From a virus, in IMG/VR virus record IMGVR_UViG_3300017992_000021, positions 1-64,000 of that record: 64,000 bases of DNA. One strand, given 5' to 3'. Within the stretch, counting starts at the first letter, position 1. Each line of letters opens with the position of its first letter. Below the pieces are notes generated by a model. It worked only from the letters and a program-made list of their open reading frames with translations, had not been told where the DNA came from and made no database searches. Below are positions 975-53,193 of the stretch, piece by piece. A program made the translations under genes and the position numbers.

Positions 975-1637
975 CTAGCAAGGGTTATCGATATAACGCT
1001 CATTGAGCGATCCGTTGTCGCTCCACCGTTTTACCTCCGCAGCGTCTGGCCATTCATCTTGCATGAAGAACGCCATCAGCTTCGGAGATTTCTCCAGTGT
1101 GGTCTTAATGTTTTTGAGCGACACGTGCCTGTACATCAGATGACCAAGATTGAAGCCCAACACGTAAACACCGAACATCGGCTCAACGTATTCCTCACCG
1201 ACGCCGTTCTTGAACACGCGAGTCATCACGCGCCCGTACTGTGTTTCCTCACGTTTGTCATCAGTGTAGAATTCAATCAACACATTCGGCTGCACATGCA
1301 TGGTAGCCGCATAAAGGCAGCTATAATCAAACCAAAGGTACTCTTTACCGTCCTCCGAGGTATAGACCTCCCACAATGTGTCGTAGTTCTTACCGCTGGA
1401 ATGCGGTACGAAATACCACTCGCCGTCATCGCAGCCGAGGTAACCTTTAACCCATTCCCCCTTGCAAGAAATTTTCGCCGGTACACTGAAAGCCGTATCT
1501 GGCGCACCAGTCGTATGAGCCGTAAACAACCGCTCACTACCCGGCTTGTCCCGCACGAGCGGGACGTTCGTGACTTTCTGCAAAGTACCCCACGCGCCTA
1601 TCCGCGTGACTACCTGCTCGGATTTATTACTCGTCAT
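975..1637 (-). CDS. Hypothetical protein
   Basis: ORF coupled to its neighbours; likely start MTSNK at 1637. Confidence 0.7.
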   Translation of the reverse strand: MTSNKSEQVVTRIGAWGTLQKVTNVPLVRDKPGSERLFTAHTTGAPDTAFSVPAKISCKGEWVKGYLGCDDGEWYFVPHSSGKNYDTLWEVYTSEDGKEYLWFDYSCLYAATMHVQPNVLIEFYTDDKREETQYGRVMTRVFKNGVGEEYVEPMFGVYVLGFNLGHLMYRHVSLKNIKTTLEKSPKLMAFFMQDEWPDAAEVKRWSDNGSLNERYIDNPC

Positions 1638-2325
1638 CACCAAACCTTTCAATCAACGCTTCCCGCATGTCCTCGGAGGCTTTGCAGAGGATGTTATCCT
1701 CATCCCGCTGCGACTTGTACGACCAGTCACAACCGAGAATCACGTTCCCCTCACAATTAAGGTACACGTCGCCCTCTTCAACACGACCATCGCAGTATTC
1801 AAACGACTCAGGTTCTAATTTCCGATAATCGAAGTGCCCCTCCATACGACCTTCCGCGACCAGATTCTCGGGATACGTAGCCTCCTCGGGGAACCTACGT
1901 TTAAAGAACGCCAAACCATCAAGCAACGTTGTATCGTAAGCACTGTCATCGCTGTGATAGCCGTCATTAGAAACTACTACCTGCGTGACTTCGTTATCAT
2001 CGCAATATGCAAACCAACGCAGGCACGCTATAACGAACTCTTCTGAAATTGCTTTACCGTTGGTAGCAATATAAAAACCACCAACACCGATTTCAAAATC
2101 TTTGCACAATTTCAACGCCTGCTCCATAATCGTCACATTCAACGAGGGCTCGCCGCCGGTAAACGTGAGGTTGGAGATGTAACGCACTTGCGTAAGTAGC
2201 GCACGTAGATCACGGTATTCCAGATCCATATTTTCGGCATCGCCGCGCAGACAATGGCTACACACCATGTTGCAACGTCGAGTAACTTCAATAACAAGGT
2301 TGTATATTTCCAGTTTCTCTTTCAT
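1627..2325 (-). CDS. Radical SAM protein
   Basis: CxxxCxxC (CNMVCSHC), GGEP, ATNG and SxD motifs. Confidence 0.9.
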   Translation of the reverse strand: MKEKLEIYNLVIEVTRRCNMVCSHCLRGDAENMDLEYRDLRALLTQVRYISNLTFTGGEPSLNVTIMEQALKLCKDFEIGVGGFYIATNGKAISEEFVIACLRWFAYCDDNEVTQVVVSNDGYHSDDSAYDTTLLDGLAFFKRRFPEEATYPENLVAEGRMEGHFDYRKLEPESFEYCDGRVEEGDVYLNCEGNVILGCDWSYKSQRDEDNILCKASEDMREALIERFGDDE

Positions 2326-2947: not shown

Positions 2948-3223
2948 TTAAGCCCTCCGAGGTAACAGCACGCCGCCATCAACAGCGAGCTTTGCTTGAA
3001 GCTCCTTAACCTGCCTGTTGGCCTTGTTACGCCGGGCAACGGCGTTCTGTACTAGGGCCAGCTTGGAAGCTTCGCGCAACGTCGTATTGCCATTGCTGAA
3101 CATACACTCACCGCGCGCCATCTTGCGGAGCTTGTCATTGCTCACGCGGTTCTTACGCAATAGGCGCGTAGCTTGTACAACGTCGATCGCGTTGTCAGAG
3201 ATAATCCTGAGAACTGTGTTCAT
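2948..3223 (-). CDS. Basic hypothetical protein
   Basis: ATG at 3223 after AAGGAAGG RBS; Arg/Lys-rich, helical. Confidence 0.7.
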   Translation of the reverse strand: MNTVLRIISDNAIDVVQATRLLRKNRVSNDKLRKMARGECMFSNGNTTLREASKLALVQNAVARRNKANRQVKELQAKLAVDGGVLLPRRA

Positions 3224-3296
3224 GGTAAATCCTTCCTTTAATGGATTCGGAAATGGTTTGATGCCCAATTTTCGTACCTCTCACATGAAAGGCACG

Positions 3297-3326
3297 AAAG
3301 AAGGGCACCACTGACAAATGGTGCCC
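3297..3326 (-). terminator. Putative intrinsic terminator at the 3' end of the structured RNA
   Basis: GGGCACCA-loop-TGGTGCCC followed by TTCTTT on the minus strand. Confidence 0.55.
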
Positions 3327-3995
3327 AACCATGACCGTCATCGCCTAGTATTTCAAGACGCCCCACCAGTGACGCTTATCCGTTTGATTTCGCGTCCTCA
3401 CTTTTAATATCGACGTGACCCAACTCGCTTGGATAACGTCTCGGGAGTTTTTCATTTCACCGCCTCGGGCGTACTCCGCACCCTGCACGGTATAAGCTGC
3501 GATTCCTGCCGCCTTACAGGCCAGCTTTTTGCACCAGCTAACTAATTATCATCACGACAATTCGCCGCTAGAGAAATCCGCTTTAAGCAATTTGCAGCGT
3601 CCACACACCTACCTAACCGCGCATCTATCACTAGCATGCGGGATACGGGATTCCCGGCACTAAGCCGAAACAATACGCTTCCGCTTGGCGTTTGTTTAAA
3701 GCGAATTTCTGATTTCAAATAACACACCACAAGCCACCTACCGACACACCTGATAACTCCTAAGCGTACCGTCAGATATGTTTTCGGCTTTTCGCAGCCT
3801 AATTAATGCACCGCATTGAAGCCTAAATTAGTCCACAGGCGAACATCGCTACGCGTAATGGTGGCTACGCGTTAGCGTTGAATTACCTACAGGTAATTGC
3901 GCATTAAATAGTTGTCAATTAACGGGCGACTATTGAAAGCCGCGTACACTGTTGAAAGCGCACAAGGGCACACCCTCAATTGAGGGTGTGCGGCT
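3300..3995 (-). ncRNA. Putative large structured non-coding RNA (~650 nt)
   Basis: No credible ORF. At least ten stems, including a 15-bp long-range helix 3696-3710/3572-3586. Several helices pair through G-U only on the minus strand. Confidence 0.6.
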
Positions 3996-4009
3996 TCTAC
4001 GTTTTCGCG

Positions 4010-4459
4010 TTACTCCACCAATTGAGCCAGCAATTCAGAAACCTTGTCTAGTATTTCCTTTTTGCTCGACTTGGCGGCTTTTGACGGCTTGGCGGCTTTT
4101 GCCTTGCGCTGCTTGGCGGCTTTTGTTGTCGCCTTTGCTTTGCGAGGCTGGAAAGCATTAAGAGTTTTCCGCGTTGAGGCGGCTTTCATCTTGAACGTTC
4201 CCGCTACCGTTTTGGCGGCTTTACGGAAATCCGCAATCAACGTTTTATCGGACTTGGCGGCTTCACCACGTGCCCGCTTGTCGATTCGGCAATCCGCGAA
4301 GAAAGCCAAACGCTTTACGTTTGAACGTTTTTCTGTATACCGAAAACCGTTTACCGACATATTGCGCTTGATTTGCGCTTGGCGGTTTTCGCTTTCGATA
4401 TTATCGAAGAAAACCCAAACATAAGCACGTTCCGTCAGCATCGTGCATTTATTCGACAT
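4010..4459 (-). CDS. Basic protein with Lys/Ala-rich (histone H1-like) C-terminal region
   Basis: ATG at 4459 after AAAGG RBS; KAAK repeats. Confidence 0.75.
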   Translation of the reverse strand: MSNKCTMLTERAYVWVFFDNIESENRQAQIKRNMSVNGFRYTEKRSNVKRLAFFADCRIDKRARGEAAKSDKTLIADFRKAAKTVAGTFKMKAASTRKTLNAFQPRKAKATTKAAKQRKAKAAKPSKAAKSSKKEILDKVSELLAQLVE

Positions 4460-4566
4460 TAGTAAACCTTTCTTTACTATTGCCCGCACGTGCCTTGCTT
4501 GCACAAGACGCGTGCAAGCGAAACGATAAGCTAAGATAAATGACAAATAACTTTCAACCACGCATA

Positions 4567-4594
4567 ACTATAACTTGGTACTAACACCAAGCAA
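4567..4594 (-). promoter_or_regulatory. Sigma70-type early promoter with overlapping palindromic operator
   Basis: TTGCTT-N16-TATAGT on the minus strand; CTTGGT-N6-ACCAAG inverted repeat (4574-4591) lies across the spacer; AT-rich upstream. Confidence 0.5.
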
Positions 4595-4747
4595 GCAAAA
4601 AACATAATTTATTTCTAATATTGTACAGAAATACAGTATAAAATTACTCCAAAAAATCAGCTAAAAACCCCTATTTTCTAGGGTTTTCGGGGTATTTTTG
4701 GGTATTTTTTAACGGTATTTTGTAACGCAAAAACGCATAAAATATTT

Positions 4748-4845
4748 CTGCAAATTCGCTGCAAATCCTCTGCAAAAATCAACGCGAATCCGCTGCAAAT
4801 TCTCTGCAAATGTTCTGCAAATTCTCTGCAGACGTTTTGCAGAAA
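4748..4845. repeat. 11-bp-period tandem array with CTGCAAA core
   Basis: Cores at 4748, 4759, 4770, 4793, 4804, 4815, 4826 and 4837 (degenerate unit near 4781), in AT-rich intergenic DNA. Confidence 0.85.
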
Positions 4846-4929
4846 ACCACGAATACTGTACAAAAATACAATATTTGAAGGCGCCAGAAAATACGCCCTT
4901 AAATGCCGCCAAGGAAATGGGTATTGTTA

Positions 4930-5928
4930 CTACTCGAACAGCCAGTCTGGAACGCTGGCTTCACGAAGGACGTCCTGCCGCTCGCTAACGGCGAGGTCAT
5001 TCCAGTCCTTACCCTTAGGAACGCGCGCTATCACGCAGTCCTTACCAGCGCCGCGCAACGCGCGACACGTCTTGACGGACTCCGCACGGGCATCCTCGTC
5101 ATGCCCGAGTATCAACCGCTTGCAAGGGTGCGATAGCAGCATACCTAACTGTACGCCGTCCGACTTCATAGCCTTGCCGAACGTAGCCACTGCGGCAAAG
5201 CCTGCCTGCTCCACAGACCACGCATTGAACACACCCTCAACAACCACCAGTTCATCAACGTAAGCCCAGCGGTCGTAATTGTAGATCAAGTCCGATCTAC
5301 CGAACGGCACCTCATCGTTGCGCGGGTTCAGGTACTTCAGCTTAGGATCGAACCGCTTGCCGTGATCCCACGCTTGGAAAAACACAAACTTCCCATCACG
5401 AAATACAGGCAGGCAGGTACGGTCGCGGTACTTACCCTCAACAAAGTACCCCACCCGCATGTCCTGAATCATCTCCAGCGAGAAGCGGCGGTCCAACACG
5501 GCGGTCAGGCTTTCCTGCGCGATGTCGTAATACGCCTGACACCAGTAAGTGTCCGCAGACATCACGCCATGCCAGTAAAGTCCCTCCGGATTAATGCTCT
5601 GGATCTCGTTGGCGACGACTTCCCGCTCGGCATTGCGCTGAGCGACTTCAGCGAAGACATCTTCGATTCGCGATGGTGGTGGACGGTACGCGCCTTCCTC
5701 AACGCCCAGCATCTTCCGGGCGGCCTCATAGGTGATGTCTTCTTCTTCCATCACCATTTTGAAACCGCTGCCGGTCTCGCCACACCGGTAACACAAGTAG
5801 ACGTTCTTGTCGTCGTTGTACCACAGCTTTTGTTCTGCCGCGCAGAACGGGCAATCGAACACATGCTCATCACCAGAAGTATACCGGTGGTTCAGGTTCT
5901 CATTTGCCCAGTCCAGTATTTGCTGCAA
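4930..5928 (-). CDS. DNA primase (Zn finger + TOPRIM)
   Basis: CPFC...CYRC zinc-binding domain; KYLN; VVEGVFNA; DEDA; KDWND. Confidence 0.9.
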   Translation of the reverse strand: MQQILDWANENLNHRYTSGDEHVFDCPFCAAEQKLWYNDDKNVYLCYRCGETGSGFKMVMEEEDITYEAARKMLGVEEGAYRPPPSRIEDVFAEVAQRNAEREVVANEIQSINPEGLYWHGVMSADTYWCQAYYDIAQESLTAVLDRRFSLEMIQDMRVGYFVEGKYRDRTCLPVFRDGKFVFFQAWDHGKRFDPKLKYLNPRNDEVPFGRSDLIYNYDRWAYVDELVVVEGVFNAWSVEQAGFAAVATFGKAMKSDGVQLGMLLSHPCKRLILGHDEDARAESVKTCRALRGAGKDCVIARVPKGKDWNDLAVSERQDVLREASVPDWLFE

Positions 5929-6493: not shown

Positions 6494-7891
6494 CTACCTC
6501 CCTAGAAATGCGAGCGGGCCAGTAGCCTGCGTCTGCGGCATCGGGTAAGCACCCCAACCCGCCTGCATCTCTTTCTCTTCGAGGTAGGCCAGCACGTAAT
6601 CAATCGCATACGGGATCTCAATGAACTTCTCACCGATGCGGTTCTTGGCCATGTAGAAACGCATGGCACCGCTGCGATGCTCCTGCTCTGTCTGGCACAA
6701 AGCGATGATCACATCGGCGATAGCCGCCTTCTCAAAACACTCGGCGAGATCAGTGATCGTCACCTTATCCTTGGTCGCACCCTTGCGGTTAGTCTGAGTC
6801 GCGGTGATCAGCGCGAAGTTCATCTCGACGGCCATGCCGCGCAACATCGTGTAAATCTCTGCGAGTTCCTCGTACCGCTTATCCTTAGCTCGGGCGCTAC
6901 GCATCAAATCCGCGTAGTCAAGTACGACCACATCCACCGGCGCACCCCACAGGTGCTCGATGCGTCGCAAGAACATGTAAAGCTCCTCGACGGTTAACCT
7001 ACCTGTCGGGAACTGCTTACACATCAGACGGCAGTCGTTGCCGCCCAAGTAATGAAGCCACTGGTTGAGGTGCGCCCCGTGCGTCAGAAATTCGTGAGGC
7101 TTGATGCCGGTAAGGCACGCCATGATCTTCTGAACGATGAGCTTCTCATCCTGCTCAAGCGTGATGTGGACGACCTTCTTGCCCTGCTTCAACAAGTTAG
7201 CCGTGAACGAAGCCATCACGGTGGTCTTGCCTGTATTCGGCGGGGCCTCAATGACGAGCATTTCCTTGCGACCTACACCGCCGCTGAGCGTCTTGTCGAG
7301 CTTGTCCAGACCGATAGGCAGGCAGTCGCGCTTGACTTCCGTAGTCAGATAGTTGTAAGTCCAGCCAAGATCGTACAACAGATCCACGCCGCCTGCGGTG
7401 AGATCCACGCCGATGCTGGAAATCTCGTTTAACCGCTCGATGTAGGTGGACTCACTTACCGGCTTGTTTTGATCGATGCGTTCCTTGATCTCTACAAGCA
7501 TTGACCTGACAGCCTGCGTCTTTGTCCAGCCGTAAATGTGCTCGCGAACGAAGTCCGCTTCGGGAACATACTCGTTGAAGAGAGTGCTGCGTAGATGCGT
7601 GATGCCTTGGTAAGCGATCTGCTGTTCATTCTCAGGCCGTCTACTAATGTAGTCCTGAGACCAATAATCAAACACGCCGATAGGTATAGCGTAGTTGTAC
7701 TGGTCGTGGAAAGCGTAAGCCCATGAGACGGCTTGTTGCAGGTAGGCGCCGCCTATCTGATCACCGGCGAAGAACTCAGGGGGAAGCGAGTGCCGCACTT
7801 GCGACAAGAAGAACGCATCCTGCAGGATGAGCTTCGCAACCGACAGCGAAAACGTCGGCGGTAGTTGTTCAGGCGCGAGATAGCTCGGCAT
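6494..7891 (-). CDS. DnaB/gp41-like replicative helicase
   Basis: Walker A APPNTGKT; ITLE; VVLDYADL; TATQTNR; KNR. Confidence 0.92.
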   Translation of the reverse strand: MPSYLAPEQLPPTFSLSVAKLILQDAFFLSQVRHSLPPEFFAGDQIGGAYLQQAVSWAYAFHDQYNYAIPIGVFDYWSQDYISRRPENEQQIAYQGITHLRSTLFNEYVPEADFVREHIYGWTKTQAVRSMLVEIKERIDQNKPVSESTYIERLNEISSIGVDLTAGGVDLLYDLGWTYNYLTTEVKRDCLPIGLDKLDKTLSGGVGRKEMLVIEAPPNTGKTTVMASFTANLLKQGKKVVHITLEQDEKLIVQKIMACLTGIKPHEFLTHGAHLNQWLHYLGGNDCRLMCKQFPTGRLTVEELYMFLRRIEHLWGAPVDVVVLDYADLMRSARAKDKRYEELAEIYTMLRGMAVEMNFALITATQTNRKGATKDKVTITDLAECFEKAAIADVIIALCQTEQEHRSGAMRFYMAKNRIGEKFIEIPYAIDYVLAYLEEKEMQAGWGAYPMPQTQATGPLAFLGR

Positions 7892-12591: not shown

Positions 12592-12776
12592 TCGATACGA
12601 GTTCACACAAAAAGTGCCTGCAGTTGATCGATGAGTGGACCAATGACCTCAAGGAGATGGTGCAGAACCACTTGATACCGGGCAAGGTGCGTTCAGAGGA
12701 ATACCAGAACGGGTTTATGGCTGGCTGTGCGGCAGTCGCAAACATGGCTGAACGTGCATTGGAGAGACTGAAATGA
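12588..12776 (+). CDS. Hypothetical protein
   Basis: ATGA coupling. Confidence 0.6.
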   Translation: MIDTSSHKKCLQLIDEWTNDLKEMVQNHLIPGKVRSEEYQNGFMAGCAAVANMAERALERLK

Positions 12777-52094: not shown

Positions 52095-53111
52095 TTATGA
52101 GGTCTGGATGTCACGGATAGAACCCGCCATAAACGGATTCTTGTACTGAAGCTGCGAGTACGTCTTCGCGAACATGATGCTCGCGTCCTTGTTACCCGCA
52201 TCGCGCGGCTCGATCTCGAAATCAAGCAGCATCTTGAACTTCAGCAAGTCGATGTCGATGAAGTCCATCCGGCCTTCCTCATACAGAGGAACGCTGATGA
52301 TGGGAACATCATTGAACATCAGGGCTTCGAAGCCGCCAACGTAGCGCAGTGGGCTAGTTGACTGGGCAGGTGCGAACGTGTAACGACGATCAACACCGAG
52401 CAGCAGACCGAACTGAGTGAACACGTTCGGTGAGCAGAAGATATGCGTGATCTTGCCCTGACGGACAGCACGCACTTCATTCAGGATCTGGTGCAGAAGC
52501 AGTTCCGAGATCGGGCGTGGCGTTCCCGGTGAGACCGGGTTACGCAGCACGAAGGACTGCCACCACGTGTCAACGGAGCGGTCGATGGTACCGTAAGTAC
52601 CAACGTCGCCACCGTCGTCAACCATGGCCTGAATGCCGGTGAGGTCGAGGCCAGTCGCATCCAGCGAGGCGTGTACGCCGTTGAGATTACCAGCGCCGTC
52701 CGACAGACTCTGCAGATTCATGTTTGCCTGAAGCTGCTTGAGGGCCTGCTCGGTGTTTTCGGCGAGGGAGTCTATGATCGCGCTACGCGACTTGGTAATC
52801 GCTTGTGCGAGACCTGAGACCTTGATCGGAACACCATTGAGTTTCCAATCCAGACGTGCAGTGTCGAACTGCTCGCCGAGATCGTTGCGGTCAATTCCGA
52901 TGTCTCCGTTTTCGGCGTAGGAGCCCGCTGCTGGATTTCCTGCGTAGTACACCTTCCAAGTGATGTCCTTCTCGACATACGACTCTTCGGTGGGCTTCAG
53001 GAGTTCCATGAACACATTGTTCCGGACGAATGTACGGTAGAAGGTAGGCTCGAACTCCTCCTTCACCATGACAGCCGCATCGGAAAAATTGAAGCCGACT
53101 TCATTCGGCAT
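52095..53111 (-). CDS. Major capsid protein (HK97 fold)
   Basis: ATG at 53111 after GGGAG; downstream of the scaffold; LTGIQAMVD, YGTIDRS..WW, GGFEALMFNDVPI motifs; terminator follows. Confidence 0.85.
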   Translation of the reverse strand: MPNEVGFNFSDAAVMVKEEFEPTFYRTFVRNNVFMELLKPTEESYVEKDITWKVYYAGNPAAGSYAENGDIGIDRNDLGEQFDTARLDWKLNGVPIKVSGLAQAITKSRSAIIDSLAENTEQALKQLQANMNLQSLSDGAGNLNGVHASLDATGLDLTGIQAMVDDGGDVGTYGTIDRSVDTWWQSFVLRNPVSPGTPRPISELLLHQILNEVRAVRQGKITHIFCSPNVFTQFGLLLGVDRRYTFAPAQSTSPLRYVGGFEALMFNDVPIISVPLYEEGRMDFIDIDLLKFKMLLDFEIEPRDAGNKDASIMFAKTYSQLQYKNPFMAGSIRDIQTS

Positions 53112-53193
53112 GATGCGTCTCCCTACTTGTAAAAACGCGAACCTAATAATGTCTCTGGTAGTCCGTGCGCGAGAAAGCCGTCCGGCCATTGCA

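Follow-up and report, generated by a model that had tools for sequence, protein, structure and literature searches.

Bacterial and phage RNAs longer than ~500 nucleotides (nt) that combine an elaborate conserved structure with a function that is not known are very few (GOLLD, ROOL, OLE and classes of raiA size), and each of them is unusual. ROOL and GOLLD occur in phages and prophages, often near tRNA islands; GOLLD is more conserved in its 3' region and variable in its 5' region, palindromic loops act in the OLE and GOLLD assemblies, and recent cryo-electron microscopy has revealed RNA-only cages, with ROOL having no identified protein partner (PMC12286853). Here, we describe a gene-free region of a phage genome that a preliminary description had put forward as a candidate large structured RNA read from the minus strand. 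The region lies in the first 64 kb (64,000 nt; hereafter the window) of IMG/VR record IMGVR_UViG_3300017992_000021, a linear virus record of 77 kb that is ~82% complete. The comparative evidence rests on three sequences, namely the window and the homologous gaps of two related loci, L004 and L005. In this small phage clade, the region is a non-coding element selected for RNA secondary structure, which ends in a terminator and lies at the end of the replication module. We consider it likely that the element is a large structured phage RNA of a new and rare family.

Like ROOL and GOLLD, this RNA belongs to the ~600- to 800-nt class, has many hairpins and long-range helices, is encoded by a phage and has no known protein product. 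As in GOLLD, it is the 3' half that holds the best-conserved island, and one domain has an interior of variable length, here between 100 and 190 nt. Unlike ROOL and GOLLD, it shows no covariance-model similarity to them, has no neighbouring tRNAs, sits inside a replication operon beside a conserved basic protein and is known from only 3 to 5 metagenomic contigs.

The preliminary description had left a choice between a divergent member of these families and a new class. Across the whole 64-kb window, the Rfam 15 covariance models gave no match at the gathering score, and a sensitive scan (E up to 10) of positions 3100-4150 returned only four miRNA-precursor models, with E above 3. The L004 and L005 homologues gave sub-threshold noise on hairpins in the sensitive scan, mostly from miRNA-precursor models and far below gathering, and the ROOL and GOLLD models matched neither the window gap nor either homologue. 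ARAGORN found no tRNA or tmRNA in the 64 kb, so that the tRNA neighbourhood that is typical, if not obligatory, of ROOL and GOLLD is lacking here. Given these null results from Rfam and ARAGORN, ROOL, GOLLD, OLE, HEARO, raiA, group I/II introns, RNase P, riboswitches and ribozymes are not detected, in agreement with the earlier statement that hallmarks of tRNA, tmRNA, RNase P and group II introns are missing. A very divergent ROOL, GOLLD or other known large RNA (OLE, raiA, HEARO) would account for the similar size, the phage location and the ornate fold, and ROOL and GOLLD do reside in phages and prophages; the Rfam 15 models are nevertheless silent at the gathering score and yield only noise at E up to 10, and the 64 kb hold no tRNA where tRNA islands would be frequent (PMC12286853). 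We therefore regard such a relationship as extremely improbable. The reading that remains after the Rfam 15 scans is a new class, founded on the three sequences. The family is new to Rfam 15, large ornate phage RNAs as a kind have precedents, and this family differs from them by its context, a replication operon and a dedicated basic protein in place of tRNA islands.

The coding tests bear out the description of the region as free of genes. Positions 3315-4009 hold no open reading frame (ORF) of at least 70 amino acids (aa) on either strand; no other stretch of this kind in the window is as long (695 nt), as had been claimed, and the next-longest measure 370 and 341 nt. The full gap, from the stop of an ORF encoding a Lys-rich protein (4010) to the ATG of a 91-aa ORF (3223), comprises 785 nt. 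Alternative codes (TGA as Trp and TAG as Gln) open no long ORF in it, and its small ORFs matched no PHROG family. When all stop-to-stop segments of at least 15 aa from the three gaps were compared, peptide similarity across the phages was limited to a nucleotide-conserved island, where it extends over 17-38 aa, in several frames and on both strands, with interruptions by stops. A frame that stays open across this island in the window meets a UAA in L004, and the island substitutions do not fall at third codon positions; they are matched by changes in the opposite helix strand. The three phages share no conserved ORF in the gap.

Relatives of this locus are rare. The primase encoded upstream has four relatives among 5.8 billion proteins; it is 59% identical to that of L004, a 13.9-kb contig, 51% identical to that of L005, which with L007 forms one contig range (metagenome and IMG/VR copies), and 36-39% identical to those of the more distant loci L008-L010. 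Both L004 and L005 keep the gene order of the window, with DnaB, primase, a gap, a homologue of the Lys-rich protein and the gene-free gap. The homologous gap lies at 12925-13505 in L004 (nhmmer E 8.6e-11), where the contig ends at 13580 and the 3' part is missing, and at 12003-12649 in L005 (nhmmer E 5.7e-5). One 60-nt island is 82% identical to L004 by blastn, and islands of the gap exceed 80% identity although identity in the flanking Lys-rich protein has fallen to 30%. Downstream of the gap, the window and L005 carry unrelated genes, which indicates that the RNA moves together with the replication module and the Lys-rich protein. The RNA and this protein occur together in three lineages and are both absent from L009 and L010; the L008 record ends ~200 nt after the primase, and neither was detected in that part.

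Other searches added little to this set. Neither the gap nor the 12 kb around it matched the phage GenBank collection (blastn, megablast), and the genome carries no second copy of the gap. The Lys-rich and 91-aa proteins retrieved nothing as bait in GenBank phages or IMG/VR, nor did P0008, one of 2-3 further contigs that are indicated by protein searches (P0008, 4.3 kb; P0009, 14.1 kb; P0010, 12 kb). A DNA pattern scan of IMG/VR with the conserved island returned only the L007 contig again and one chance coding match, and the same pattern in 185,579 GTDB representative genomes gave 44 matches, all of which fell by chance in GC-rich coding DNA. With a covariance model of the conserved core (R1), neither the more distant phage records nor additional DnaB relatives yielded a copy, and a literature search for published phage RNA catalogues yielded nothing relevant.

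Two helices, here called P_hp and P_long, could be judged without hand-fitting because their arms are aligned gap-free by sequence alone. P_hp is a two-tier hairpin within the most conserved island (Table 1). Its outer helix reads UACCGU/GCGGUG in the window, UACCGC/GCGGUG in L004 and UAUUAC/GUAAUG in L005, and its inner helix alternates between GGGUG/CGCCC and AGGUG/CGCCU. The sequence AGUACGCC, which comprises the hairpin loop and the 3' strand of the inner helix, is invariant, as is the trailing GAA. In the MAFFT alignment, 97% of the P_hp cells are paired and four pairs carry double changes, a result equalled by 4 of 500 shuffles; slid partners give 0-1. A loop-E or sarcin-ricin-like reading of AGUA...GAA around P_hp was considered and rejected, since in L005 it is the alternative outer helix that compensates the substitutions.

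P_long corresponds to the long-range stem of the preliminary description, which we recovered with arms of 19 nt that are 89% complementary. The arms UUCGCUUUAAAC/GCUUAAAGCGGA in the window correspond to UCUUUGAUAAUC/GGUUAUCAGGGA in L004, with 12 of 12 pairs formed (three of them G.U), and L005 retains an 8-bp core, AUCCGUUU/AAACGGAU. In the register of the sequence-only nhmmer alignment, 5 of the 12 columns carry double changes among the three phages. A best-partner scan for the 5' arm placed the homologous 3' arm first of ~780 candidates in the window and in L004, and sixth of 873 in L005. Because the MAFFT alignment (A6) had the 3' arm out of register, P_long was counted separately. The stem encloses ~100 nt in the window and in L004, and 190 nt in L005; such a difference is what a variable domain with a conserved closing helix would show.

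The alignment as a whole also carries a structural signal. On the anchored, sequence-only MAFFT alignment, RNAalifold gave -66.5 versus -41.0 +/- 5.0 for column shuffles that preserve the gap pattern and conservation (z = -5.1; 0/100 shuffles), and the reverse complement reached z = -3.0 in the same test. The test on structure-guided alignment gave -6.1 and -5.2; an anchor-free, StrAl-like structure-guided alignment was discarded, having misaligned L004. Over 12 hand-mapped helices with 80 pairs, 202 of 209 cells are canonical and 46 double changes occur versus 2-10 with slid partners, totals that are inflated because the helices were chosen per sequence. Taken together, the homologous gaps, the compensatory changes, the lack of a conserved ORF and the 3' terminator support the large structured minus-strand RNA that had been proposed.

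The preliminary description had assigned the RNA to the minus strand from a G-U signature. In the mapped helices we count 22 G.U cells versus 4 A.C cells, a count biased to the minus strand because the helices were picked on that strand, and some G.U pairs are conserved, such as the U.G at the base of P_hp in all three phages. The larger forward than reverse z score, the conserved G.U pairs, the 22-to-4 count and the orientation of the terminators all point to the minus strand, which is the sense of the primase gene. The same evidence bears on the idea that the region is a replication-origin element, acting either as a pre-primer or R-loop transcript in the style of ColE1 RNA II or as DNA beside the primase and helicase genes. 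The region does lie within the replication module, with an iteron array beside it and the primase ~900 nt upstream, and RNA II-type pre-primers are structured and of similar size. Yet helices that depend on G.U pairs, together with a signal that is stronger on one strand, indicate selection at the level of RNA and not DNA, the iterons and the AT-rich DNA sit in the other gap (4562-4929), the GC-skew trend is unchanged at 3300-4000, and no RNA II or RNAI-like Rfam model matched in the gap. An origin element is therefore very unlikely.

Table 1. Features of the structured RNA and its surroundings, in window coordinates.
Feature	Position	Strand	Remarks
Proposed structured RNA, maximal extent ~630-670 nt	3294-3967	-	From after the upstream hairpin to the T1 U-tract; candidate 5' end
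T0, perfect 24-nt palindrome hairpin	3968-3991	-	19 nt past the stop of the Lys-rich ORF; without U-tract
Motif A1	3911-3924	-	UUGACA in window and L004, UUGGCA in L005
5' multi-branch domain	3803-3907	-	Closed by P1 (3901-3907 with 3803-3809); holds HP1a (3881-3898), HP1b (3847-3877, loop CCAYCAU) and a third hairpin
HP2 hairpin	3741-3787	-	Loop GUACG..AGGAG, conserved in window and L005
Motif A2 (UAUUUGAMAUCA)	3710-3721	-	Directly 5' of the long stem
P_long domain	3572-3710	-	Stem 3692-3710 with 3572-3590, enclosing several hairpins
P_seg3, two-tier hairpin	3495-3526	-	3' internal loop (GGAAUC in window and L005); abuts UAUA linker
Most conserved island	3435-3494	-	Holds P_hp, then GAA..AAACU
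P_hp, two-tier hairpin	3458-3492	-	Outer helix 3487-3492 with 3458-3463; inner helix 3479-3483 with 3467-3471
3' domain hairpins	3412-3440 and 3371-3396	-	Alignment among the phages is poorer here
T1, intrinsic terminator	3303-3326	-	10-bp stem (6 G-C), then UUCUUUCG
T2, 13-bp hairpin	3270-3299	-	5' arm is the T1 U-tract
DnaB-type helicase	6494-7891	-	Followed by a 205-aa ORF
DnaG-type primase	4930-5928	-	
AT-rich gap between primase and Lys-rich ORF	4562-4929		GC 0.34-0.38
Lys-rich protein, orphan, 149 aa	4010-4459	-	From likely ATG; directly upstream of the RNA in all three phages
Small ORFs 3' of the structured gap (91, 102 and 90 aa)		-	
Radical-SAM protein (Pfam Radical_SAM, phrog_1802)	1627-2325	-	~900 nt downstream of the RNA

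Read 5' to 3' on the minus strand (q = 4010 minus the window position), the architecture begins with T0, whose perfect palindrome had already been pointed out. At the position of T0, L004 has a 17-bp intrinsic terminator with a T-run and L005 has three tandem perfect hairpins. Motif A1, which follows, represents either a box resembling a -35 element or a single-stranded RNA motif; its UUGACA has no -10 box at the proper spacing, and its use as a -35 would cut off P1. A1 is related to A2, with a consensus of ~YUAUUUGACAUCA that occurs once or twice per RNA at a distance of 190-235 nt and is not repeated elsewhere in the genome. This shared motif may be a promoter element, a protein site or an RNA motif.

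Within the 5' multi-branch domain, the closing helix P1 has 6-7 bp in each of the three phages, and HP1b keeps a similar loop motif while all 7 of its stem pairs differ among them; both helices were mapped by hand, as was P_seg3, which carries double changes in 7 of 8 pairs and is joined to P_hp by UAUA. HP2 was not found in L004. Its loop (3762-3769, GUACGCUU) is complementary to 3673-3680 (AAGCGUAU) inside the P_long domain, with 8 bp in the window and L005 and one double change, which makes this pairing a candidate pseudoknot and only a lead. A different pairing across the long stem had been suggested earlier. The underlying complementarity is present (3662-3675 with 3777-3790, 14 nt, 86%), but the 9-bp pseudoknot built on it did not rise above shuffles in RNAduplex or stem enumeration and has no counterpart in the two relatives. 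At the 3' end, the base of the T1 stem (GGGCAC/GUGCCC) is identical in L005. T2 has a matching hairpin in L005 as well and stands just upstream of the ribosome-binding site and ATG (3223) of the 91-aa ORF.

A short motif, GUACG (usually RGUACG), recurs along the RNA. It is found four times in the window RNA (q63, 241, 536 and 733) and five times in the L005 RNA (s5 188, 250, 428, 622 and 676), with <1 expected by chance, and once in the L004 copy, which is cut at its 3' end; two copies sit in conserved hairpin loops. Since GUAC is self-complementary, GUACG could be a protein-binding or a kissing-loop motif. CsrB/RsmZ-type sponges and 6S RNA are protein-sequestering RNAs. The RNA described here resembles them in ending at a terminator and in carrying a short repeated motif, and it may share their stability; it is unlike them in being much larger, in having no homology to them, in having the motif once in L004 and in having a partner that is a candidate only.

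The hairpins at both ends raise the question as to whether the region acts in cis, as an intercistronic control region of the early operon in which a structured leader modulates T0 and T1 by attenuation or antitermination, possibly with the Lys-rich protein, and so times read-through from the replication genes into those that follow. The genes are co-oriented, terminator-like hairpins bracket the RNA, T1 and T2 lie just upstream of the next ribosome-binding site, and neither the RNA nor the downstream genes have a promoter that we could recognise. As with lambda nut and HK022 put, the element lies in an early operon, between terminators and in the same orientation as the flanking genes. It differs from these sites in being ~5-10x larger, with its conservation in internal loops and a long-range helix, and no boxA/boxB-like or put-like element was recognised in the RNA. 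Known processive antitermination RNAs and nut sites span tens to ~120 nt, far below the 650 nt found here. Moreover, the highly conserved loops and the long-range helix are a long way from the terminators, we saw no conserved antiterminator as an alternative to T1, and the difference in downstream genes between the window and L005 implies that the RNA is not tied to a particular regulated function. Control in cis is thus unlikely, and the strong terminator that separates the upstream gene from the RNA in L004 argues for a separate transcription unit.

On balance, we lean towards the view that positions ~3294-3967 encode a conserved, structured, non-coding minus-strand RNA that founds an RNA family and has a trans-acting role in a ribonucleoprotein (RNP). 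The RNA would accumulate as a discrete, stable, trans-acting species, arising either at a promoter that escaped recognition or from the early transcript through read-through and processing. As a scaffold or decoy, most plausibly in an RNP with the adjacent Lys-rich protein, it would act in early infection, in replication or host takeover. The 17-bp terminator in L004, the strong 3' terminator, the conservation of loops far from the terminators and the differing downstream genes argue for such a discrete, trans-acting RNA. The mechanism itself, a trans-acting RNP with the Lys-rich protein, we put forward tentatively, as having somewhat less than an even chance of being correct. We can also picture, as a doubtful extension, that the RNA founds a new class of large, ornate phage RNAs and has a working role inside the replication or early module. 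It would assemble with the co-inherited Lys-rich protein or with itself, its invariant GUAC loops possibly kissing, into a particle that acts in DNA replication or host takeover.

The proposed partner is itself an orphan. Homologues of the Lys-rich protein are encoded at 12299-12772 in L004 and 11498-11986 in L005; it has 3-4 relatives among billions of proteins and belongs to no Pfam or PHROG family. An AlphaFold model (predicted local distance difference test, pLDDT, 67) comprises an alpha/beta N-domain, a disordered Lys/Ala(/Thr)-rich tail and a C-terminal helix, and no known fold clearly matched it (best Foldseek E 0.05; best VIA Z 6.9, to generic ferredoxin/ACT-like folds).

Several points weigh against this interpretation. 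The fold of the Lys-rich protein is a generic alpha/beta sandwich of no recognisable RNA-binding family, and its proposed role as partner draws on adjacency, basic composition and co-occurrence in one small clade. In none of the three phages does the RNA strand carry a recognisable sigma-70-type promoter. The evidence is comparative and comes from DNA, from which we infer the discrete transcript and its trans-acting role. There are three sequences, and L004 lacks the 3' end at its contig end, which makes the covariation statistics weak; helices outside P_long and P_hp were mostly mapped by hand for each sequence.

Folding energies belong among these points as well. The minus strand folds with a minimum free energy (MFE) of -288.3 kcal/mol versus -250.6 +/- 7.6 for dinucleotide shuffles (z = -4.95, 40 shuffles; z = -5.1 in a 20-shuffle run), the plus strand reaches z = -4.3, and all of the local stems listed in the preliminary description (3371-3396, 3412-3440, 3467-3483, 3495-3526, 3741-3787, 3848-3877 and 3881-3898) appear in the minus-strand MFE fold. 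Of eight equal-length coding windows of the same phage used as controls, seven gave z between +0.6 and -2.8; the remaining one (52200-52984, minus strand, inside the ORF at 52095-53189) gave z = -6.2 with 12 shuffles, and may reflect a structured mRNA or a noisy estimate. Because this one coding control exceeds the gap, the folding energy, better than that of shuffles as it is, is supportive and not decisive, and does not single the region out.

These considerations would suit a functionless spacer assembled from terminators, remnants of decayed genes and hairpins that arose by chance, with the similarity due to recent common descent: the element is found in three related phages only, one coding control matches its z score and several helices are hand-mapped. 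Such a spacer would not be expected to keep islands at >80% identity beside a protein at 30%, its helix arms would not diverge and yet stay complementary in the register of a sequence-only alignment, and it would not give a column-shuffle z of -5.1; no protein-level remnant is detectable either. We consider a spacer quite improbable, and retain the conserved structured RNA as the better account. A further class of this kind, unrelated to those described, would widen the set of large ornate RNAs, and would mean that rare, lineage-restricted members are still hidden in uncultured marine and sediment phages. The replication-operon context and the dedicated basic protein suggest a candidate partner, a handle that is missing for ROOL (PMC12286853).

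The closest cultured phages are <33% identical in DnaB, which places the phage in an uncultured lineage. Identical DNA was found in two sediment metagenomes and one seawater metagenome. The sequencing runs that carry the sequence include no RNA run, being three DNA metagenome runs only, and contigs from four DNA runs showed no variants when compared with the window sequence.

The genes around the gap are all on the minus strand, and in the order DnaB, primase, iteron gap, Lys-rich protein and RNA, the RNA closes the replication module. The AT-rich gap behind the primase is likely an origin or regulatory region: it contains ~9 CTGCAAA units at 11-bp spacing (array 4746-4851) and three GGTATTTT repeats, and TGTACA-containing inverted repeats flank the array (4613-4639 with 4853-4879). 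At the equivalent place, L004 has a 1.3-kb gene-poor gap. In L005, the sequence CCUAGUACGAUGAGGAAC at 12658-12676 (s5 ~672-690) presumably resembles the sarcin-ricin loop of 23S rRNA (CCUAGUACGAGAGGACC); as it is not conserved in the window or L004, the likeness is probably a coincidence. Downstream of the RNA, the radical-SAM gene sits among small ORFs without known family.

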